A stretch of DNA of 64,000 nucleotides. Origin: Clostridiales bacterium UBA4698 (GTDB taxonomy: Bacteria; Bacillota; Clostridia; TANB77; UBA1234). The notes beneath the pieces were generated by a model that saw only the letters and a program-made list of their open reading frames with translations, did not search any database and was not told the DNA's origin. Each line of letters begins with the position of its first letter. The first letter of the stretch is position 1. Made by a program: the position numbers and the translations under genes. Below, piece after piece: positions 2,316 to 30,775 of this stretch. The DNA lies in contig DHKI01000032.1 of assembly GCA_002404755.1 (NCBI GenBank), positions 43,039 to 107,038 of the forward strand. The letters run 5' to 3'.

Positions 2316-3500
2316 ATGAATGTAAAGGTTTTGGGAACTACTCACGTTGGATATTTTCTTGCAAAAGAAGAGGCTTTGGATTTTGGTGGAAAAGCAGCAG
2401 GTGTATGTTATATGCCAAGCGACTTTGAAACCCTCATGAATGAGCCTAAGGAGAAAACACTCGCAAGAGTGAACGACACACTAAAGTCCGGACATCATAG
2501 TGTATACGACCATGTCTCGTATAACTTGCTTTTCGAGAGCATTCCGAAAATCTTGGCGATGGTTTTAAACAACGAAGGTATTTATACCACGTCGGAAAAG
2601 TCTGCACGTTACACCAAAATGAAGCCTTCTGAGGAGGAGCTTTTTCTTTACAACAAGTGGAATGATATTTTCAAAGGATTGATTACCGAGAAATACTTTG
2701 AAAAGTATCTTGCATATTTTGATGGAAACGAGAAGAGAGCAACCAATGCGGTAAAGAAACTTGCACAGGAAAATGCAAGGTACATGATAAGTGTATTTAC
2801 GCCTACGACTATGATTTATTCGGTAAGTTTTAGGCAAATAAACTATATCGTGTCTTTCTTTGAAGAGTTCATCGAAACATCAGAGGATACTTCATTTAAC
2901 CAAAAGTTGAAAGGAGCTATGCTCGAGTTTATAGAAAAGCTTCCCGCTGAAATAAAAGAACCGCTTTTGACAGCTTCTGAAAAGGGCAGAAAGATTTCGC
3001 TTTTTGACAGCAGAGTAGAAAGAAAAGAAGAATTTTCCGAGAACTACTGCACAACCTACAAAGGAACCTTTGCCGAACTTGCACAGGCACAAAGACATAG
3101 GACGCTTGACTACAAGATGAGATTTTTGCCTGAAGCAGAATTCTATGTTCCTGAGATTTTAAAACAAAGCGATGAGCTTTCAAAAGAATGGACGAAAGAC
3201 ATTACGTCTATTGCACATGTCTATCCTCAGGGAATGCTTGTTAGTATAAGAGAAAGAGGAACCTACGAAAAATTCATACTAAAGTGTTATGAAAGACTTT
3301 GCGGATGTGCACAGCTTGAAATAGCACTTCAAACCAAAAAGACTCTTGATAACTATCTTGAGCAAACAAAAGAAACGAACGTAGAAGTATACGAAGAACT
3401 TGAAAAAATCTCGAAAGGTGCTCGTTGCACATTCCCTTGCTTCAAATGTAACAAGAGATGTGTTTGGGGAGCAAAAGAAGCTTTAACAAGAAAAATTTAA
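2316..3500 (+). CDS. ThyX-like flavin-dependent thymidylate synthase family protein with a long C-terminal extension; elevated GC
   Basis: SGHHSVYDHVSYNLLFE resembles the ThyX SGHxSVLEH motif, and an RHR motif is present (AQRHRTLD). GGAGG RBS sits 9 nt before the ATG at 2316; the ORF track starts earlier at 2256. At 414 aa it is much longer than a canonical ThyX. GC is about 40 % against about 29 % background. Confidence 0.45.
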   Translation: MNVKVLGTTHVGYFLAKEEALDFGGKAAGVCYMPSDFETLMNEPKEKTLARVNDTLKSGHHSVYDHVSYNLLFESIPKILAMVLNNEGIYTTSEKSARYTKMKPSEEELFLYNKWNDIFKGLITEKYFEKYLAYFDGNEKRATNAVKKLAQENARYMISVFTPTTMIYSVSFRQINYIVSFFEEFIETSEDTSFNQKLKGAMLEFIEKLPAEIKEPLLTASEKGRKISLFDSRVERKEEFSENYCTTYKGTFAELAQAQRHRTLDYKMRFLPEAEFYVPEILKQSDELSKEWTKDITSIAHVYPQGMLVSIRERGTYEKFILKCYERLCGCAQLEIALQTKKTLDNYLEQTKETNVEVYEELEKISKGARCTFPCFKCNKRCVWGAKEALTRKI

Positions 3501-3537
3501 GCAACAAGAAGTTTTAAGCTTCGAATAAAAGTCAAAT

Positions 3538-3588
3538 ATGGCTGAGTATTTAAGGAGAAATCCCAAAATACTCAGCCATTTGCTTTAT
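3538..3588. terminator. Bidirectional rho-independent terminator between the ThyX-like gene (+) and nth (-)
   Basis: Perfect 12-bp stem atggctgagtat / atactcagccat with an 18-nt loop, followed by ttgcttta. Confidence 0.5.
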
Positions 3589-3614
3589 CCTAAAGTGAAA
3601 AGGATATATATTTT

Positions 3615-4238
3615 TTATTTTTTCTTACAAAATCTTTTAACACTACACTCATCGCACTTAGGCTTTTGTGCTGTACAAATTGCACGACCATGATATACCA
3701 ATAAATGATTCATTAAAGGCCAATATTTCTTTGGAATCTTTTTTAACAAGTCTTGTTCAACTTTTGATGCTTCTTTTTCTTTAGATAGTCCAAGTCTATT
3801 TGAAAGCCTAAGGGCATGCGTATCTACTGCAATACCTTCACATTTGTTGAATGCTTCTAACATTATTACATTAGCACTTTTTCTTCCAATGCCTGAAAGT
3901 GTCGTTAAATCCTTCATTTCGTTTGGAACGATACCATTATACTTTTCTATAATTTGAATTGAACATTCTTTTATATGCTTTGCTTTATTTCTATAAAAAC
4001 TAATAGAAGAGATTAGCTTTTCAATTTCTTTAGTATCCATTTTTGCAAACTGCTCTGGTGTGTTTGCAACTTTGAATAAATCTTTTGTGACGATATTTAC
4101 CCTCGCATCTGTGCATTGGGCAGAGAGCATAACGGCAACCAAAAGCTCAAATGGTGATGTAAAATCAAGAGAGCCTTTTTCGCCATCGTAGCATTTAGAA
4201 AGTTCTAGTATAAATTCTTCTATTTCACTTTTTTTCAT
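3615..4238 (-). CDS. nth: Endonuclease III (DNA glycosylase/AP lyase)
   Basis: HhH-GPD motif LSGIGRKSANVIML and a C-terminal 4-Cys Fe-S cluster loop CTAQKPKCDECSVKRFC; 207 aa. Confidence 0.9.
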   Translation of the reverse strand: MKKSEIEEFILELSKCYDGEKGSLDFTSPFELLVAVMLSAQCTDARVNIVTKDLFKVANTPEQFAKMDTKEIEKLISSISFYRNKAKHIKECSIQIIEKYNGIVPNEMKDLTTLSGIGRKSANVIMLEAFNKCEGIAVDTHALRLSNRLGLSKEKEASKVEQDLLKKIPKKYWPLMNHLLVYHGRAICTAQKPKCDECSVKRFCKKK

Positions 4239-13144: not shown

Positions 13145-14956
13145 TTGTCAGATGAACAAAAGAATATACGTAACTTTTGTATTATAGCACATATAGACCA
13201 TGGAAAATCTACACTTGCTGATAGGCTAATCGAGCTTACAGGTGTTTTGACAAAACGTGAAATGCAAGAACAAGTATTAGATAACATGGAATTAGAGAGA
13301 GAACGTGGTATAACAATTAAACTTCAATCTGTTAGAACTGTCTATAAAGCAAAAGATGGAGAAGAATATATACTAAATTTAATAGATACACCAGGGCATG
13401 TTGACTTTACTTATGAAGTTTCAAGAAGTTTGGCAGCTTGTGAAGGAGCAATACTAGTTGTTGATGCCTCTCAAGGCGTTGAAGCACAAACACTTGCCAA
13501 TGTTTATTTGGCACTTGATAACAATCTTGAGATTGTACCAGTTATAAATAAAATCGACTTGCCAAGTGCAAATCCTGAAATGGTAATAGAAGAAATAGAA
13601 AATGTTATAGGAGTTGAAGCTCATAGTGCTCCAAGGATTTCAGCAAAAACAGGACTAAATGTAGAAGAAGTGTTAGAAGCAATCGTAAATAATATTCCAG
13701 CACCAAGTGGAGATCCAAAAGCACCAACAAAAGCTTTGATTTTCGATTCGTATTATGATAATTACAAAGGCGCAGTAGCTTTTGTAAGAGTAAAAGATGG
13801 AAGCATAAAAGTTGGCGATGAGATTGATTTCATGGCTGCTGGAAAGTCATATATAGTTTCAGAAGTTGGATATTTTGGTGCTGGCACATACATACCAACA
13901 AACGAACTAAAAACAGGCGAAGTTGGATATGTTGCAGCTAGCATAAAAAATGTATCAGACATTCATGTTGGTGATACAATAACATTAAAAGAAAACAAAG
14001 CAAAAGAGCCATTGCCAGGTTACAAAAAGGTTACACCAATGGTTTATTGTGGAATATATCCTGCAGATGGAAGTGATTATGAAAATCTAAAAGTAGCACT
14101 TGAAAAACTATCTTTAAATGATGCTTCACTTTTCTGGGAGCCTGAAACATCAGTAGCTCTTGGCTTTGGATTTAGATGTGGATTCTTAGGATTACTACAC
14201 ATGGAGATAATTCAAGAAAGAATCGATAGAGAATATGACTTAAATGTAATTACTACAGCACCTAGCGTTATATATAAAGTTACAAAGACAGATGGAACAA
14301 AATTTGATTTATATAATCCGACAGATTTACCTGCTACACAAGAAATTTCTTATATCGAAGAACCAATTGTAAAAGCAGATATAATGCTTCCAAAAGAATA
14401 TGTTGGAAATGTTATGGAACTATGCCAAGATAGGCGTGGTGTGTATAAAGATATGCAGTATATGGATGCATCAAGAGTAATACTAAAATACGAGCTTCCA
14501 TTAAATGAAATAATATACGATTTCTTTGATGCACTTAAATCTAGAACAAAAGGCTATGCTTCATTTGATTATGAAATTATTGGTTATAACAAATCGGATT
14601 TGGTTAAACTAGATATAATGCTAAATGGCGATGTAATAGATGCATTTTCACTTATTGTGCATAAAGACAAAGCATATGCAAGAGGCAGAAAAATGGCAGA
14701 AAAGTTAAAAACAGCAATTCCAAGACAAATGTTTGAAATTCCTATTCAAGCAGCAATTGGCGGAAAAGTAATAGCAAGAGAGACTATTTCTGCAATGAGA
14801 AAAGATGTATTGGCAAAATGTTACGGTGGAGATATAACACGTAAGAAAAAGCTTTTAGAGAAACAAAAAGAAGGAAAGAAAAAGATGAAGAGTTTTGGAA
14901 CAGTTGATGTACCTCAAGAAGCATTTATGTCAATATTAAAACTAGATGATGAATAA
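13145..14956 (+). CDS. lepA: Elongation factor 4 (LepA)
   Basis: TTG start with a GGGAGG RBS; G-domain motifs [14 protein letters not shown] and NKID; the LepA-specific C-terminal domain is present. Confidence 0.95.
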
Positions 14957-23408: not shown

Positions 23409-24197
23409 ATGAAGTACGAAAAAGAGATCAAGGTTTTAGACATCGACATTGAAACGACCATGTCAAATTTGCAAGTAATTGGAGCTGAATTTGTAGGTAA
23501 GAAAGAACAAAAAATTTATGTTTACGATGTTCCAACTTTGTATTATCGCTATCTTGAGATTTGTGAGCTTCTGAAAAGCTCGAATGAATTGATGGTGACT
23601 ACAAATATTGGGAAATTAAAAGTGCTTTTGGAAGAGTTTGTCGACTTAATTCCTGAAGGTGATTTGATAGGTTTGACGGTCGAGTTAGGTGTGAAAGACA
23701 TTAGAGAAATTTTGAAACTTCCTGTAGAAAAAATGCTTGAAAAAATTCAAGGAAGAGCTTTCTTTGAAAAAATTAGTTCATACAAGATTAATCCAAACAA
23801 ATGGATTAGACTTAGAAAAAGCAATGAAAAAGTTGAACTTACAACAAAGCACATATTTAACAAAAAGGAAATGAAGGTTCAGGCTGTAGAGGAAAGAGAG
23901 ATAACCACATCTTCTTTTGAAGAAACTAACAGTATTCTTGAAAGTATAGGCATTGTTAAGAAAAGTTATCAAGAAAAAATTAGGTATAGTTACGAATTAG
24001 ATGGAGCTAATATCGAGATTGACTTGTGGCCATTACTTAACCCATATCTGGAGATTGAGTGTGATGATGTAAGTGTGATTGAAAGCATTATTACTAGATT
24101 AGGACTTACTGATAAAGAAATCGTTTCTATTAATACTCAGCAGTTATATCGTAGAATAGGTATTGATTTGCAAAAAACACCGGAACTTAAGTTTTAA
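23409..24197 (+). CDS. CYTH-domain protein (triphosphate tunnel metalloenzyme / CyaB-ThTPase family)
   Basis: N-terminal EIKVLDIDIE...LQVIGAEFVGKKEQKIYVYDVP matches the CYTH EIE...Q.D.YFD pattern. C-terminal YELDGANIEIDLWPLLNPYLEIECDD matches the terminal beta-strands with the ExE motif. Confidence 0.5.
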   Translation: MKYEKEIKVLDIDIETTMSNLQVIGAEFVGKKEQKIYVYDVPTLYYRYLEICELLKSSNELMVTTNIGKLKVLLEEFVDLIPEGDLIGLTVELGVKDIREILKLPVEKMLEKIQGRAFFEKISSYKINPNKWIRLRKSNEKVELTTKHIFNKKEMKVQAVEEREITTSSFEETNSILESIGIVKKSYQEKIRYSYELDGANIEIDLWPLLNPYLEIECDDVSVIESIITRLGLTDKEIVSINTQQLYRRIGIDLQKTPELKF

Positions 24198-24314: not shown

Positions 24315-24866
24315 ATGGATAATATTAATTTAAATTTATATAAAATTTTTTATATAGTTGCTAATTCTAAAAGCTTTGTAGAGGCATCTAATAAATTATA
24401 TATTTCACAACCAGCAATAAGTAAAGATATAAAAACATTAGAGTCTATAATGAATACAAAATTGGTTTATAGAAAAAATAATGGAATAACTTTAACTAGA
24501 GATGGAGAAGAGTTTGTTAAATATCTGGAGGAATCATTTGGTATATTAAATGTAGGAGAGAAGATAATAAAACAAAGAAATGATTTATCAAGTGGAAATA
24601 TATCTATTGGTTGTCCTTCTCATATATCATCACTTTTTTTGATGGAAAAAATAGAAGAGTTTAAAAAGGACTTTTCAAATATTAGAATTCGATTATGAGT
24701 GGGTCAAGCGAACAATTAATGAAAATGTTACAATTGCACAAAGTTGATTTTATAATAGATACTTCTCACAATACAAGTATATATAATAATTTAAAGATAA
24801 AACATATAAAGGAATTTGATACAATCTTTATTTCAAACCAAAAAAGAAAAAACGAACGCAGATAAG
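24315..24866 (+). pseudogene. LysR-family transcriptional regulator, frameshifted and C-terminally truncated
   Basis: wHTH NLYKIFYIVANSKSFVEASNKLYISQPAISKDIKTLE. The reading frame ends at 24698 (IRIRL*). The substrate-binding-domain sequence SIMSGSSEQLMKMLQLHKVDFIIDTS continues in the +2 frame and stops at 24866, about 100 aa short of a full-length LysR. The junction lies in aattcgatt. Confidence 0.6.
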
Positions 24867-24998: not shown

Positions 24999-25620
24999 AT
25001 GAAAATTGCAATTGAAGGAATGGATGGTGTGGGGAAGACGACAATTGCTAAAAAACTAGCAGGTGATTTAGACTTCATGTATGTAGATAAACCTCTTCAT
25101 TATTTGTTAGATGGAACAGAAACTGAAACATATATGAAGTTAAATAATATTTTGAAAAAAATGTACAATTTGGATGATTCTGTGATTAAAGCTTGGATGA
25201 TAGGGTTAGGCAATTTATATAGTTGTAGATATTTCAAAAATGAAAATGTTATTTTAGACAGGCATTTAGTTTCAAATTATTTTTGGAATGGAAGTAAAGA
25301 AAGTAACATCGTTTTTTAGAGCCTTGATAGATTTAATTGGAGTGCCTGATATGACAATTCTTTTATATGCTTCAACCAAAACGCGTCAAGAACGATTAGC
25401 ATTAAGAGATAATAAGGATAGAGACCTTTTTGATCCAGAAATATTAGTTGAAGGATATGAGAAAATGAAAAAATTTTTGGAAGAATTTAATATACCATAT
25501 ATTCCAATAAATACTGAAAATAAAACTTTGGAAGATGTATACAGTACTGTTTACCAAGAAGTTGAAAAAATCATGAGAAAGGAGAAACAGGAACATGGAA
25601 TTGTTGAGCCCAGCAGGTAA
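24999..25620 (+). pseudogene. P-loop (deoxy)nucleoside / thymidylate kinase-like NMP kinase, split by a frameshift at the T6 run 25312-25317
   Basis: Walker A IAIEGMDGVGKTTIAKKL (dNK/Tmk-type) and DRHLVSNYFW are in frame 1; the lid region FFRALIDLIGVPDMTILLYAST..RQERLALR is in frame 2. Removing one T from gttttttag restores NIVFRALIDL. Confidence 0.6.
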
Positions 25621-27706
25621 TTTAAAACATATTGATTTAGCAATAAATAAAAAAGTAGATGCTGTATATGGAGGTTTAAAAGAATGGAATGCTAGAAACA
25701 AAGCCGTAAACTTTTCAATAGAACAATATAATGAAGTAGTAAAAAGATTACATACTCATGGTATAAAATTTTACATGACATTAAATACCTTAGTGTTTGA
25801 TGAAGAAATTGAAGAGATATTATGTTTTTTAGAAAAAGATGATACTGTATTACCAGATGCTTTTATTATTGCAGATTTAGGTTTAATTCAAAGAATTAAA
25901 GAAAGTTTTCCTAATGTAGCATTGCATTTTTCAACACAATTTGGAATTCATAATATATCCGATGTTAAATTTGTTGAGAGCTTATCTTGTGAAAGGGCTA
26001 TATTAGCCAGAGAACTAACAGCAAATGAAATAAATAATATAAAAAATAATACAGAATTAGAAATAGAAAATTTTGTATGGGGGTCGCAATGTATAAGTTT
26101 TTCTGGAATGTGTTTTTTTGGTTCATTAATTAATTGTGGTAATGGTAATAGAGGGAAATGTATTATAACATGTAGAGATATATATCAAATCGGGGATGAA
26201 AAGGGGCATTTTTTATATGTTCCGGACTTGGATTGTACGGCAATGCTTTCAGTTTTAGAAAAAATGAATATTGATTGTATCAAGTTAGAGGGAAGAAGAA
26301 GAGCGGTAGAAGAATTGTCAAATATTATAGATAATATACAAAAACAACAATATAATACTGAACAAAATGGATATATATATGGAGAAAAAGTAGGAAAAAA
26401 TAAACTTTATGAAAAAATTAATAAGAGAATAAAGCCAATTTGCAATGTAAGAGAATTAAAAAATATATCTGAATATGATGTTTTTATAAAATATAACGAG
26501 GGTACTCCTGAAGAATTTATAACTGAAAATATCGAAAGTTACAATAAAGAAGATATATATTATGTTTTTTCAGAATATAAAAAAGATTTTAAATTTGATA
26601 AGAAAAATATTTCTATTGATTTAAAAATTGAAGGAGATGTAGTAACCAGTTTATTATATGTTAATTCAAATGGAGAAGGAGAGAATTTTAATGATATACA
26701 AGAAAGTGGATATGTACCATTTGAATTAAAAAGATTTGTTAAAGACATAAATATTATTAATGAGAATATTAACTTATATAAAGTAAAATATATTAGAAAT
26801 CAAGAGGATAATTATAAAATTAGTGTGAACTTGTATAATAAAATATTGGAATATATAAAAAATGATAACTTGATGAATAAAAAGAAAAAGCAAGATATAA
26901 ATAAAAAATTTAGAGTAGAAGAGTTATATGTAGAAACAGATAGATTAGATTATGCATTAGAATTAAAACAAATCTCACAAGTTAAAATTATTTATAATAT
27001 AGCTTCAATAGAAAATTTGAAAATAGTAAAAAGACTTATATCTGAATTAGGAAACGATGTAATATATAAATTACTCTTATTTAATTTTAAAAGTGTAAGT
27101 TTATTGGAGTATTATAAAGAACTTGAAAGTTATCCAGTAATGTTTACTAGACTATCGCAAATATATGAAACAAAAGATTTAAAGTTTAGTAAGAAATATA
27201 TAGATTATACTATTTATGCATGGAATATGGATACTATAAAATTTCTAAAGAAGTACGGCATCGATGAATTTACGGCCTCTCCTGAATTAAGTTATGCGAA
27301 AAATAATAAAATTTTTAATGGGAATACAGTTCAATATATAATTGCAGGCAAGTTACCATTAGTATATACGAGACAATGTTTTTCACATTTATATGGTTGT
27401 GAGAATTGTATAAAAAATAAAAAAACAGAAAAAGAGCTTATTAATGTTGATAAAAATATTAAATTTAAAATTATTTGTAAGGACGATTATAGGATGATTA
27501 TTGCAGATACTCCTATGTTGAATAACTTTCAATACTTTAATAATTGTAATTCAATAAAATTTAGGTATGTAACAACAGATCAAGAAATAGATGAAATAAT
27601 AAAGACAATAAATACTATAAAAGAAGAAAATTATTACGAAAAGTTAAAGAATATGAAATTGTGGAAAGATTCTTATGAAGGAAACATTTTGGAAAGTAGG
27701 TGCTAA
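25595..27706 (+). CDS. Peptidase U32-family protein (Fe-S, O2-independent hydroxylase / collagenase-like family) with a roughly 430-aa extremely AT-rich C-terminal extension
   Basis: MELLSPAGNLKHIDLAINKKVDAVYGG ... CISFSGMCFFGSLINCGNGNRGKCIITCRD is the canonical U32 signature with its Cys cluster. A second CxxC pair occurs near the C-terminus (YTRQCFSHLYGCENC). Confidence 0.7.
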   Translation: MELLSPAGNLKHIDLAINKKVDAVYGGLKEWNARNKAVNFSIEQYNEVVKRLHTHGIKFYMTLNTLVFDEEIEEILCFLEKDDTVLPDAFIIADLGLIQRIKESFPNVALHFSTQFGIHNISDVKFVESLSCERAILARELTANEINNIKNNTELEIENFVWGSQCISFSGMCFFGSLINCGNGNRGKCIITCRDIYQIGDEKGHFLYVPDLDCTAMLSVLEKMNIDCIKLEGRRRAVEELSNIIDNIQKQQYNTEQNGYIYGEKVGKNKLYEKINKRIKPICNVRELKNISEYDVFIKYNEGTPEEFITENIESYNKEDIYYVFSEYKKDFKFDKKNISIDLKIEGDVVTSLLYVNSNGEGENFNDIQESGYVPFELKRFVKDINIINENINLYKVKYIRNQEDNYKISVNLYNKILEYIKNDNLMNKKKKQDINKKFRVEELYVETDRLDYALELKQISQVKIIYNIASIENLKIVKRLISELGNDVIYKLLLFNFKSVSLLEYYKELESYPVMFTRLSQIYETKDLKFSKKYIDYTIYAWNMDTIKFLKKYGIDEFTASPELSYAKNNKIFNGNTVQYIIAGKLPLVYTRQCFSHLYGCENCIKNKKTEKELINVDKNIKFKIICKDDYRMIIADTPMLNNFQYFNNCNSIKFRYVTTDQEIDEIIKTINTIKEENYYEKLKNMKLWKDSYEGNILESRC

Positions 27707-27712
27707 TAAATA

Positions 27713-28423
27713 ATGAGAACGAAAAGTATATGGGGAAACCCTCCAACAAGACTATATAAATTAATAAATTTAGCGGAAAGGGATTTTAGTAATAAATTTA
27801 CTGCTTGTATAGTAGGATGTTCGGACGGAAAGTTTTTAATGCCATTTGCGAGAAAAGGTTATTTAGTAACAGGATATGATATAGATGAGATTGCATTATA
27901 TGGTGGTGAAAAGGATTTCCCGATTGTAAATGATAAAATAAAGTATACATATAATAAAAATTTTAAATCAAACGATTATGAATTAGAAAGAAAACGTGTT
28001 TTAGGTATAGTTGAAAGATTGGAAAAAGAAAATTTATCAAATAATGCAATTATTGAAAAGAGAGATTTTTACAAAAATATTCCGAACGAAAAATTTGATG
28101 TAGTTTTTACAAGTTGCTCATTACATTATACTGTGAATAAAGAGTTTACATTAAAGGATAAAGTAGAAAAATTACAATCAATTGTTTCAAAAAATGTTTT
28201 TTTGTATATTGATTATATGATGGCAATTGATGAGGAAGATAGTATAAATTATCCTAAAAATAAGTTCTTTAGAAAAGGCGAAATTAAAAATTATTTTGAT
28301 GATAATTGGAAAATTATTTCCGTTATAGAAAATAATACGCCTTCTTTTGAAGGTGCTCATGTTGATTGCGTAAAAGATCATTTTCATAGATTTGGATATG
28401 TGTTAGCTAAAAAAGTAAAATAG
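27713..28423 (+). CDS. TehB-like class I SAM-dependent methyltransferase
   Basis: Motif I ACIVGCSDGKFLMPFARKGYLVTGYDID. The C-terminal FRKGEIKNYFDDNWKII...RFGYVLAKKV parallels the TehB C-terminus (FKEGELRRYYEGW...LRFATMLARK). Confidence 0.6.
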   Translation: MRTKSIWGNPPTRLYKLINLAERDFSNKFTACIVGCSDGKFLMPFARKGYLVTGYDIDEIALYGGEKDFPIVNDKIKYTYNKNFKSNDYELERKRVLGIVERLEKENLSNNAIIEKRDFYKNIPNEKFDVVFTSCSLHYTVNKEFTLKDKVEKLQSIVSKNVFLYIDYMMAIDEEDSINYPKNKFFRKGEIKNYFDDNWKIISVIENNTPSFEGAHVDCVKDHFHRFGYVLAKKVK

Positions 28424-28435
28424 GAGGAAAATAAA

Positions 28436-29206
28436 ATGCAAAAAAAAGAAATATGCTGGAATATAACAACAAGATGCAATCAAGATTGTAAATATTGTCA
28501 CAGATTTTTGAATGTTAAAGAGTTGCCATTTGAAAAAAGTGAAAAGATTTTAGATAATTTAGTAAAAGATAAAATTACAGATATTACTTGGACAGGTGGA
28601 GAAGCATTAATATATGAAAATATAGATAAGTTAATTGAAAAAGCGTATAAAAGCGGGATAAAAAATAAGCTAATAACAAATGGAAAAATTCTGGCAAAGG
28701 GTGATATGCATATTATTAAGTATTTAGATAGCTTAACATTATCAATAGATTCTAATAATAATCAAATAAATGAAAAACTTGGTAGAGGAAAAAATCACTT
28801 TATAAATATTAAATATATATTAGATTACATTAAGGAAAATAATATTAATATAAAGTTAAGAATTAATACTGTTGCAAATAAGCTAAATATTAAAAATATG
28901 AGTGAATTAATGACTTTTTTAAATGAATACAATATTTATGCTTGGAGGATATTCAGATTTATGCCATTAAGGGAAACTGCAATAAAAAACAAAGAACAAT
29001 TTGAAATTTCCGATGAAGAATTTGAATCTATAAAGGTCAAAAGTAAAAAAGAGAGTAATATAAAAAGAATAGAATTTCGTCAAGAAAAAGATATGGAACA
29101 AAAGTATGTATTGTTAGTTGCAAATGGTGATATAGTTGTAACTGAAAATGGAAAAGATTTAAAAAAAGGAAATGCTTTGTTTGATAGTGTATCAAAATAT
29201 ATGTAA
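28436..29206 (+). CDS. Radical SAM enzyme of the viperin-like family (candidate prokaryotic viperin / nucleotide-modifying radical SAM)
   Basis: CNQDCKYC is a CxxxCxxC cluster in the context [17 protein letters not shown] (viperin: NYHFTRQCNYKCGFCFH). Other segments align with human viperin: [32 protein letters not shown] ([19 protein letters not shown]), [16 protein letters not shown] ([14 protein letters not shown]), [10 protein letters not shown] (RWKVFQCLLI) and EISDEEFES (VIGDEEFER). Confidence 0.7.
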   Translation: [256 protein letters not shown]

Positions 29207-29218
29207 AGGAGAAAAGCT

Positions 29219-30055
29219 ATGAGTAATGAAACTCCAAATCTTATAATAATAGGAAATATAGCATATGATGTAATTGATTTTGGCAAAGTTTTTGATGACA
29301 GAGAACAAATTGATGAAATTGGAGGAGCTTGTGTATTTTCAGCTATTCCTGCTAGTTTTTTTAACAGGGTAGGTGTGGTTGCTAAAATTGGTGAAGACTT
29401 TGACCTTTCTAAATTTTATAATTATAATATTGATTTGTCAGGAATAAAAAGATTGAATCTTCCAACAACTAAATTTTATACTATATGGAATACAATTGAT
29501 GGTCAAAATAGAACTATTATTGGTGAGGTGCAGCCTGATATGGAAGTTGGTGCTAGTGATATACCGGAAAAATTCTTAAAAGCGAAACATTTTCATTTGA
29601 CTACGGCCAATCCTTTGAAACAACTAGAGATAATTAATTATTTGAGAAAGAAAACAACGGCAACAATTAGTGCAGATACAATTGATTGTTACGCCAAACA
29701 ACCAGAATGCAAAATGGTTTTTGATAATGTTGATATAGCTTTTATAGATAAAGAGTATACCAATTTATTGGATTGTAAAGCACGAATTAAGATTATAAAA
29801 TATGGTAAAGAAGGTTGCTTATATTATTCAAGTAAAAAAAGTTTTCCTGTTTATGCAAATGTAATAGAAAATGTTGTAGACAAAACGGGAGCAGGAGATT
29901 GTTTAAATGGAGTTTTTTTGAATTTATTAATTAATGGGCAAAACGAAATTAAAGCATTAACTACAGCTGTAAATATAGCCACAGAATCAATAAAGAATAG
30001 AGGAATAATGAGTTTGAAAATACCATCTAATGTAAAATATGATGTGGAAATATAA
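29219..30055 (+). CDS. PfkB-family (ribokinase-like) sugar/nucleoside kinase
   Basis: N-terminal IGNIAYDVI..GGA and C-terminal anion-hole motif DKTGAGDCLNG. Confidence 0.75.
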   Translation: MSNETPNLIIIGNIAYDVIDFGKVFDDREQIDEIGGACVFSAIPASFFNRVGVVAKIGEDFDLSKFYNYNIDLSGIKRLNLPTTKFYTIWNTIDGQNRTIIGEVQPDMEVGASDIPEKFLKAKHFHLTTANPLKQLEIINYLRKKTTATISADTIDCYAKQPECKMVFDNVDIAFIDKEYTNLLDCKARIKIIKYGKEGCLYYSSKKSFPVYANVIENVVDKTGAGDCLNGVFLNLLINGQNEIKALTTAVNIATESIKNRGIMSLKIPSNVKYDVEI

Positions 30056-30307
30056 AAATACAAAGTTGAAATGCATGTTTTGTAAATGAGAGCCCAAAAT
30101 AAATATGTTAATGACAAAATTGAATATACGAAGCTGATGAGGGTGCAAGTTAGAATACTTACACCTCAATGTTTTTTAAAAAGGTCATTACACATAATGT
30201 GAGGCTTAAATCAAAAAAAGATAAGAGACTTTGCCTCAAAATATAATTTTGAAATGATGTGGATGAGTTTATATGGAACTTTATTTGGTATATTTAGGAG
30301 GAGTAAT

Positions 30308-30775
30308 ATGGAGGAATATGAATATAGTTTTGAGGTTGCTGGAATTGAACCATATATAGAATATTGTGAGAAAAATTCTTATAAACTACGTAAATCAAAT
30401 ACACAAAAAAGAATTGTTTATGAAAATTTTTATAATAAAAATGTATTAGCGAGAATTACAACTGAAATCGAGAATAATAATGAAATCACAAAAATCGATT
30501 TTAAAAATGTTGGCAAAAATGAAAAAGATTTAAAAGTTTCGAATGAATCAATACCAATGTTAATTACATCTGAAAACATTGATATGATTGAATCTATTTT
30601 AGAGGTATTAAGATTTGAAAAAACCTCTGAGCTTAAAAGAGAAAGATATGTTTATATAAAAAATAATGTTAAGTTTGAAATAGATAAATATATTGAGCCA
30701 ATAATGAATGTTGTTGCCATAGAGGGAGAAAAGTCTTTAGTGGACAGTGTTTATCAAGAAATAAAAGAGCTTTGA
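30308..30775 (+). CDS. CYTH-like (triphosphate tunnel metalloenzyme) domain protein
   Basis: Strong RBS taggaggagtaat-ATG at 30308; the ORF track starts at 30254. N-terminal EYEYSFEV...QKRIVYENF and C-terminal RERYVYIKNNVKFEIDKY...VVAIEGE fit the CYTH pattern. Confidence 0.45.
   Translation: MEEYEYSFEVAGIEPYIEYCEKNSYKLRKSNTQKRIVYENFYNKNVLARITTEIENNNEITKIDFKNVGKNEKDLKVSNESIPMLITSENIDMIESILEVLRFEKTSELKRERYVYIKNNVKFEIDKYIEPIMNVVAIEGEKSLVDSVYQEIKEL

Follow-up and report, generated by a model that had tools for sequence, protein, structure and literature searches.

A conserved short-form relative of viperin in uncultured gut Clostridia and Bacilli and its possible role in nucleotide chemistry

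Here, we analyzed a 64,000-nt stretch of DNA (hereafter, the window) from Clostridiales bacterium UBA4698 (GenBank assembly GCA_002404755.1, contig DHKI01000032.1, positions 43,039 to 107,038 of the forward strand) and found that the gene at window positions 28436-29206 encodes a radical S-adenosylmethionine (SAM) enzyme that is homologous to the antiviral enzyme viperin. Proteins of this 256-aa form make up a subfamily that is conserved among uncultured gut Clostridia and Bacilli. Judged by sequence, the window enzyme is not a canonical prokaryotic viperin (pVip), since it falls below the family cut-off and differs in the N-x-H motif, the C-terminal tail, and the class of its beta-8 loop. The explanation that we favor, and to which as a whole we give about even credence, is that the protein is the enzyme of a distinct, uncharacterized viperin-like subfamily (~256 aa, C-W-N motif, short C-terminus) and that it performs viperin-type ribose chemistry as a step toward a modified nucleotide analogue, probably defensive.

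RESULTS

Homology of the window enzyme to viperin

The gene and the motif blocks located in its translation are as follows:
28436-29206, (+) strand: viperin-like radical SAM enzyme, ATG start, 256 aa (from the ORF list)
Residues 6-22: cluster-binding block
Residues 51-58: TWTGGEAL
Residues 79-86: LITNGKIL
Residues 97-121, 139-154, and 169-178: further motif blocks
Residues 190-198: EISDEEFES

A first-pass annotation made from the sequence had described this protein as a radical SAM enzyme with extended similarity to viperin, and all seven of the motif blocks that it quoted were found in the translation. In a phmmer search of PDB sequences, these blocks aligned collinearly with mouse viperin (5vsl; E-value of 2.3e-15, query residues 6-224), a match far beyond chance. 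Viperins were the top PDB sequence matches, followed by BlsE as the next family (1.7e-8), and a profile built from 43 family sequences matched viperins with E-values of 1e-24 to 3e-21 and MoaA with 8e-14. Among curated models, Pfam recognized only the generic Radical_SAM domain (63 bits), while the best NCBIfam model was NF038283, "viperin family antiviral radical SAM protein" (viperin_w_prok; 134.9 bits), and the best PADLOC model was pVip, "Viperins associated with kinases" (154 bits, E-value of 1.2e-45). Profile-profile comparison (hhalign) of the family with five pVips named as such by PGAP gave a probability of 99.95% and an E-value of 1.3e-37 over 250 columns. The best profile matches therefore do not lie in another radical SAM subgroup, which had been named beforehand as the outcome speaking against the annotation.

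An AlphaFold2 model of the protein, built from 43 homologues (predicted local distance difference test score, 94.7; predicted template modeling score, 0.91), was compared with the PDB by Foldseek, and the top 18 matches were all viperins or viperin-like proteins, with template modeling (TM) scores of 0.83 to 0.87 when normalized to the query. The predicted fold is a partial (beta-alpha)6 barrel, for which viperin is nearest among solved structures. Homology of the window protein to viperin is established, and the viperin/pVip family is the nearest known one by sequence, by profile, and by predicted fold, in line with what the first-pass annotation had proposed.

The cluster motif C14-x3-C18-x2-C21 and the G54-G55-E56 triplet were invariant in the 43 family members, as were C7, W8, N9, K78, R117, H121, N144, R171, R179, R215, Y224, T236, D241, G245, and N246. 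C7, C14, C18, and C21 are the only cysteines of the window protein, which leaves no second cluster of the MoaA type; MoaA itself (GTP 3′,8-cyclase) is 18% identical, and its model TIGR02666 scored 66.5 bits against a cut-off of 284. Assignment as a SPASM/twitch maturase was rejected, because the protein ends at residue 256 without a Cys-rich domain and all SPASM scores were far below their cut-offs.

A conserved subfamily outside the canonical viperins

A length of 256 to 257 aa is common to >100 clusters at ≥57% identity, and the C-terminus of the subfamily contains a set of invariant residues (R215, D219, Y224, G231, T236, D241, G245, and N246); together, the shared length and invariant C-terminus indicate that the short form is not a truncation artifact. 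An exhaustive search of 1.84 billion representatives returned 1,191 clusters with the threshold set at E < 1e-10 and 89 with it set at E < 1e-30. When one genome per species was scanned, relatives were present in 161 of ~185,000 species genomes, and the 80 best species loci all came from metagenome-assembled genomes of uncultured gut Clostridia, Bacilli, or similar bacteria, the best being 77% identical. In a neighbor-joining tree rooted on E. coli MoaA, human viperin and four pVips formed a canonical clade with 93.5% bootstrap support, and the window family fell outside it. The window subfamily itself (67%) was nested among proteins with the C-W-N motif, although this is a rough tree in which deeper nodes reached 10 to 45%.

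The close relatives that resemble the window protein have a non-basic residue 49, K78, R215, and a short tail. A further set of relatives of 275 to 300 aa, which we call G2 (e.g., P0142, P0174, and P0204), shares with the window family the C-W-(N/D) motif, P-(L/I)-R-(E/G) after beta-6, and the T/S...D...G-N loop; these proteins are 27 to 38% identical to the window enzyme over their full length and also score below the cut-off of NF038283 (139 to 166 bits). Unlike the window subfamily, however, they keep the equivalents of viperin K120, K220, R245, and K247 together with a ~30-residue R...W tail. From their sequences, the G2 proteins look like nucleoside triphosphate (NTP) binders, and the window subfamily appears to have lost those features.

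The window enzyme and pVips (as defined by NF038283 and PADLOC pVip) are homologous over ~250 columns, share the same radical SAM motifs and the equivalents of R194, N222, K247, and Y302, have a nucleoside monophosphate (NMP)-kinase-like gene in the operon, and often reside on mobile, defense-rich DNA. They differ in that identity is only 23% and that the window family has an obligatory LysR partner as well as fusions to receiver-like, LysR, and PfkB domains. Identity to eukaryotic viperin (RSAD2; 5VSL, 6Q2P) is ~22 to 23%, and the window protein lacks the N-terminal amphipathic helix as well as a C-terminal stretch of ~30 residues, which viperin structures resolve only with CTP or UTP bound.

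Scores, pocket residues, and tail compared with canonical viperin

NF038283 has a cut-off of 180 bits, which the window protein does not reach (134.9 bits, compared with 243 to 300 bits for five plasmid-borne proteins named by PGAP as viperin family). Ten individual representatives scored 134 to 166 bits, and with an E-value threshold equivalent to 180 bits, none of the 121 full-length nearest representatives passed. On the PADLOC pVip profile, the window protein covers positions 5 to 229 of 262 and the family scores 142 to 157 bits, stopping near position 230, whereas canonical pVips score 223 to 323 bits over the whole 262-position profile. Similarly, a Nostoc pVip matched solved eukaryotic viperins end to end with 170 to 194 bits, compared with 50 to 60 bits for the window protein. 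Short length alone was rejected as the cause of the low NF038283 score, because a truncated 250-aa pVip from Anabaena still scored 263 bits. This canonical pVip, on Anabaena cylindrica plasmid pANACY.03 (L100, 7221-7973; 250 aa), adjoins a deoxynucleoside kinase gene and an ISL3 transposase gene and was probably cut short by the ISL3 insertion.

Residue equivalences are alignment-based throughout (MAFFT with a column census), and mouse viperin numbering was transferred through the phmmer alignment; residues 76 to 302 of the human viperin sequence used in the alignment and tree agree with the mouse sequence. The N-x-H that precedes the cluster cysteines in human viperin and all five pVips is replaced by C7-W8-N9, which is invariant in the family, so that Cys7 (codon 28454-28456) stands at viperin Asn77 and N9 at viperin H79. 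Cys7 is also present in most of the 121 nearest relatives (C-W-N/D) and might act as an H-atom donor that alters the outcome or product of the reaction. Among the other substitutions, K120 corresponds to D49 (a position that varies among D, N, S, E, and H across the family), R245 to A169, and the (E/K)-G-(E/Q)-N stretch after beta-6 to P-L-R-E, which supplies R179. In the work on viperin structure 6Q2P, K120, R245, and R347 are reportedly the residues that contact the triphosphate. Retained equivalents include R117 (R194), N144 (N222), R171 (K247), and Y224 (Y302), while K220 is represented by R142, or by Asn in one subgroup. The first-pass annotation had made its viperin reading dependent on the NTP-binding residues, and the alignment divides them: the equivalents of K120 and R245 and the tail are gone, and those of K220, K247, and Y302 are kept.

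Two basic residues, K78 and R215, are specific to the family and were gained where the K120 equivalent is gone. Across 117 relatives, the presence of a basic residue at position 49 is anticorrelated with that of one at position 215 (57/29/22/9), a signal that sequence relatedness inflates and that points to coordinated rewiring of the pocket. In the beta-8 loop, where the alignment is moderately reliable, C314 (Asn in most pVips) corresponds to invariant T236 and K319 to invariant D241. In the preprint by Shomar et al. (10.1101/2023.09.13.557418), the nucleobase-contacting residues of this loop fall into four classes (Cys/Lys, Arg, Asn, and Asp), and T236 lies outside all of these.

The same preprint describes a C-terminal extension in all viperins (Shomar et al., 10.1101/2023.09.13.557418). 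The proximal part of this barrel-closing extension, from Y224 to the G-N loop, is retained in the window protein, while the final 25 columns of the 279-column pVip profile, which contain the conserved R-G-G...W, are unmatched in the family (hhalign and MAFFT). The first-pass annotation, which gave the missing piece as roughly 35 residues, was right about the loss, with hhalign leaving those 25 template columns unmatched and MAFFT placing the end of the protein ~27 to 30 residues before that of viperin. PDB viperin chains contain 258 to 262 ordered residues when nucleotide-free (5vsl/5vsm) and 290 to 293 when bound to CTP or UTP (6q2p/6q2q), and the TM score of the predicted model, normalized to the target, was 0.82 to 0.83 for the nucleotide-free viperins versus 0.75 for the CTP/UTP-bound ones (Foldseek). 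Both comparisons indicate that the absent piece is the part of viperin that becomes ordered upon NTP binding. Taken as alignment-based evidence, these differences suggest that the substrate pocket has been remodeled and that the substrate may differ from a plain NTP bound in the manner of viperin. The typical pVip identity implied by the first-pass annotation thus did not hold up, given the sub-cut-off NF038283 score, the low PADLOC score, the C-W-N motif, D49 and A169, and the absence of the R-G-G...W tail.

The operon in the window and its state

The gene lies in a stretch of low GC content (0.24 to 0.27, versus ~0.30) that forms an island between typA and queA-tgt. The other genes of the island, in order, are as follows:
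23409-24197, (+) strand: CYTH/triphosphate tunnel metalloenzyme-like protein, 262 aa (Pfam CYTH 18 bits, below cut-off)
24315-24865, (+) strand: LysR-family regulator pseudogene (frameshift near 24695, ~114 C-terminal codons gone)
24999-25620, (+) strand: P-loop NMP-kinase-like (dTMP-kinase-like) gene (frameshift in the T6 run at 25311-25316; PADLOC VakA 33.8 and 28 bits for the two halves)
25595-27706, (+) strand: U32-family protein, 703 aa (Pfam Peptidase_U32 152.7 bits)
27713-28423, (+) strand: SAM-dependent methyltransferase-like protein, 236 aa (12 nt 5′ of the radical SAM gene; Methyltransf_11 23.2 bits versus a cut-off of 21.2)
29219-30055, (+) strand: PfkB-family (ribokinase-like) kinase, 278 aa (12 nt 3′ of the radical SAM gene; Pfam PfkB 57 bits; GAGD anion-hole motif)
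30254-30775, (+) strand: small ORF, 155-173 aa (right island edge, before queA; present in strain L102)

The genes from the kinase through PfkB overlap or lie 6 to 12 nt apart, which indicates one operon. A promoter and terminator scan of the AT-rich window was uninformative, with 69 promoter-like sites found and 60 expected. The CYTH-like protein matched the triphosphate tunnel metalloenzyme Saci_0718 in the PDB with an E-value of 5e-5 as a single sequence and 5.9e-11 as a family profile, and its ExExK motif (E4, E6, and K8) and tunnel Arg and Glu residues are invariant. The U32 protein scored 156 bits with NCBIfam TrhP and 132 bits with UbiU, both below cut-off, and consists of a TrhP/UbiU-like N-terminal domain and a long C-terminal extension; TrhP and UbiU are prephenate-dependent, O2-independent Fe-S hydroxylases. 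Other Pfam matches of the methyltransferase-like protein were weak, as was its match to NCBIfam TehB-like. The best PDB match of the PfkB kinase was the PfkB carbohydrate kinase 3kd6 (E-value of 8.5e-10), and the PDB search returned no close solved relative that would hint at a substrate for PfkB, the methyltransferase, or the U32 protein. The small ORF had no match in Pfam, NCBIfam, or the PDB; by BLASTP, it weakly matched the 262-aa CYTH-like protein (E-value of 0.002, in the C-terminal half of the latter) and is possibly another CYTH-like gene of minimal size.

The first-pass annotation had also noted a nucleotide kinase upstream. A P-loop NMP-kinase-like gene is indeed part of the operon, but it lies three genes away from the radical SAM gene and is split by a frameshift in the window. 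The annotation called an upstream kinase typical of pVips; in the subfamily, it is LysR and the receiver-like domain that are conserved as partners, and not a kinase.

With the LysR and NMP-kinase genes disrupted, the cassette in this strain may be deregulated or decaying. A stronger version, in which it is a decaying remnant without current function, seems to us somewhat unlikely. Relative to a strain that is 98 to 99% identical in DNA (L102) and carries this island at the corresponding position, the LysR pseudogene has lost ~260 to 290 bp at its 3′ end, and in L102 both LysR (291 aa) and kinase (206 aa) are intact; moreover, no recombinase is left between typA and queA. However, none of the radical SAM, U32, methyltransferase, PfkB, and CYTH ORFs is shortened, the radical SAM protein shares 99% identity with P0001 (from contigs L102 and L103), and the kinase frameshift, lying in a T6 homopolymer, could reflect phase variation or an error in sequencing. 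In any case, decay concerns the state of the window copy rather than the function of the family and is compatible with the other explanations.

Neighbors, fusions, and mobile elements across the family

A neighbor census was made by tblastn (E-value of 1e-5, at which divergent partners can escape) around the 80 best species loci:
LysR regulator upstream: 75 of 80 loci, i.e., all 75 with enough upstream sequence
Receiver-like domain, downstream or fused: 62 of 80 loci
Divergent Spo0A-like response regulator: 60 of 80 loci
ToxN toxin upstream: 22 of 80 loci
CYTH-like gene: 15 of 80 loci
U32, methyltransferase, and kinase block: 14 of 80 loci
PfkB downstream: 7 of 80 loci

The architecture seen in the window is therefore a minority form. 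The receiver-like domain was also considered as a candidate flavodoxin-type electron donor; its only family match was Response_reg, below cut-off (Pfam). Several partners also occur in C-terminal fusions with the radical SAM domain: PfkB in P0121 (550 aa), a full LysR in P0177, P0190, and P0197 (561 to 564 aa), the receiver-like domain in many clusters of ~396 aa (among them P0113, P0123, and P0127), and an HD domain in P0246 (480 aa). These fusions confirm functional coupling of the enzyme with its partner domains. The viperin papers examined do not mention fusions with LysR, receiver-like, PfkB, or HD domains, our literature search found no paper linking a viperin-like enzyme to U32, LysR, or PfkB, and in the searchable literature, key viperin papers excepted, we found no description of the subfamily or of its LysR, receiver-like, PfkB, and U32 partnerships.

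Large serine recombinases lie at the ends of the elements that carry the gene, and PemK, sigma-like genes, a resolvase, and diversity-generating retroelement (DGR) modules occur nearby. In L005 to L007, a Zip-family transporter gene is split into two fragments (~3144-3647 and 13836-14042), with the whole cassette, a resolvase, and a recombinase between them, indicating that the element inserted into the Zip gene. The DGR modules (reverse transcriptase, bAvd, and MutS_I-like) were observed a few kb from LysR-radical SAM-PfkB loci and share an element with them (L001:4684-6764 and L095:2765-4654). Some type-C cassettes carry a second methyltransferase instead of PfkB, plus GreA-like genes. GreA/GreB-like small proteins are encoded within or beside U32/methyltransferase/radical SAM cassettes at L039:4464-4973, L039:6607-7134, and L005:1345-1809. 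Gre factors cut the 3′ ends off stalled transcripts, and these proteins might shield host RNA polymerase from a chain-terminating product. A match on a Clostridium beijerinckii plasmid (H3) was dropped as a relative because it is a SPASM-type radical SAM protein.

Two other systems invite comparison. On the E. coli IncF plasmid NZ_CP045714 (L098, 21220-22790), a viperin-like radical SAM protein of 288 aa forms an operon with a deoxynucleoside kinase and NudI between toxin-antitoxin systems. It is ~25% identical to the window enzyme (tblastn covers 95% of the query), scores 105 bits with PADLOC pVip with the last ~30 positions unmatched, and has no NCBIfam match at E ≤ 1e-25, for which reason PGAP names it merely "radical SAM protein." Its deoxynucleoside kinase and NudI partners differ from the LysR, U32, methyltransferase, and PfkB of the window, and its placement in the neighbor-joining tree is unstable; from sequence, it looks like another unnamed viperin-like system. 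The second is OpnA of Ophion, a three-gene system against jumbo phages, which was likened to the window enzyme by description and shows that viperin-like enzymes take part in multi-gene defense, but which has PHP and PRTase partners and comes from Gammaproteobacteria.

DISCUSSION

The data above show homology, a predicted fold, altered motifs, and the linkage and fusion of genes, and from these we infer a chemistry, substrate, product, and defensive role for the enzyme. Under the explanation that we favor, a 5′-deoxyadenosyl radical generated from SAM at the [4Fe-4S] cluster would attack the ribose of a nucleoside or nucleotide, leading to loss of the 3′-OH. Having lost the NTP-clamping tail along with two basic residues, the enzyme may use a substrate that carries fewer phosphates or may bind it in a different mode. 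The U32 protein would add a hydroxyl and the methyltransferase then a methyl group, the product would be re-phosphorylated by the nucleoside/sugar-type PfkB kinase and the NMP-kinase-like enzyme, and CYTH and NUDIX proteins would trim or detoxify triphosphates. Switched on by LysR, the co-transcribed pathway would build and phosphorylate a modified nucleotide analogue, and the dedicated LysR together with the location on mobile islands makes use against phages or competitors the most probable one.

Several points weigh against this explanation. First, K78, R179, and R215 might simply rebuild the triphosphate site, which would leave an ordinary synthase of 3′-deoxy-3′,4′-didehydro-NTP (ddhNTP), and the roles assigned to the changed residues come from sequence alignment and published viperin-CTP structures. 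Second, 62 of the 80 members have no kinase, U32, or methyltransferase partner and only LysR and the receiver-like domain, so the enzyme must be able to work alone. Third, the regulator and one kinase are broken in the window. Fourth, the defensive role is suggested by context, namely mobile islands, ToxN, and likeness to pVips and Ophion, and tblastn found no homologue in the phage collection and only one relative of the family in IMG/VR, so the elements that carry the gene are not phages of a typical kind.

The first of these points leads directly to an alternative, which we regard as unlikely, in which the protein is a short prokaryotic viperin that converts CTP, UTP, or GTP to the chain terminator ddhNTP with the aid of the upstream NMP kinase. 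Its PADLOC pVip match, the viperin_w_prok model as the best NCBIfam family, viperin as the top structural match, and the VakA matches of the kinase halves are all consistent with this, as are the retained equivalents of Y302, K220, K247, R194, and N222; K78 and R215 could offset the loss of K120, and the many members that stand alone with a regulator are what a self-sufficient NTP-using enzyme would look like. What speaks for a separate subfamily is the shortfall on NF038283, which the 250-aa truncated pVip does not share and which extends to all 121 nearest representatives, along with the absence of N-x-H, of the K120 and R245 equivalents, and of the RGG...W tail in a family for which an extension is described throughout (Shomar et al. 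preprint, 10.1101/2023.09.13.557418). In addition, the C314 position is an invariant Thr, outside the Cys, Asn, Arg-type, and Asp classes, and the well-supported canonical clade does not include the window family.

That the enzyme instead makes a small-molecule signal or performs another radical reaction feeding a regulatory circuit (e.g., control of the mobile element), with LysR and the receiver-like domain sensing or controlling it and no antiviral nucleotide involved, is quite improbable: the constant LysR, the frequent receiver-like and Spo0A-like partners, three independent clusters of LysR fusions, elements with a sigma-like gene, PemK, resolvase, and serine recombinase, and an invariant Cys7 absent from viperins that could alter the reaction outcome would all suit it, but a LysR beside an operon is ordinary for inducible pathways and implies no signaling, the NMP kinase, PfkB, CYTH, NUDIX, and HD partners point to nucleotide metabolism, the frequent neighbor ToxN is an abortive-infection toxin, and no signaling precedent for viperin-like enzymes was found in the searchable papers.

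Within the favored explanation, ribose chemistry toward a modified nucleotide analogue, a more specific proposal is doubtful as it stands: that the short C-W-N subfamily makes a doubly modified analogue rather than plain ddhNTP, with the U32 protein hydroxylating and the methyltransferase methylating the base, the radical SAM enzyme dehydrating or deoxygenating the ribose, and the PfkB and NMP kinases then restoring phosphates, as a new LysR-induced antiviral or antibacterial class in anaerobic gut bacteria. As part of the same tentative proposal, the substrate of the radical SAM enzyme in cassettes with U32, methyltransferase, kinase, and CYTH genes would be a nucleoside, an NMP, or a base-modified nucleotide.

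Viperin is among the few immune enzymes that humans have in common with bacteria, and the compounds it makes are natural chain terminators with antiviral action. The subfamily described here is widespread in gut Firmicutes and keeps the viperin scaffold, with a pocket that appears rebuilt, the NTP-clamping tail gone, and a dedicated LysR regulator; some elements add a putative Fe-S hydroxylase, methyltransferases, two kinases, and a triphosphate-tunnel enzyme. Automatic defense finders are likely to call such genes "pVip," whereas curated NCBI models do not, so viperin counts from gut metagenomes may combine two groups that differ in function. If the subfamily does make a new nucleotide analogue, antiviral nucleotide chemistry would be wider than currently described and could offer new drug scaffolds.

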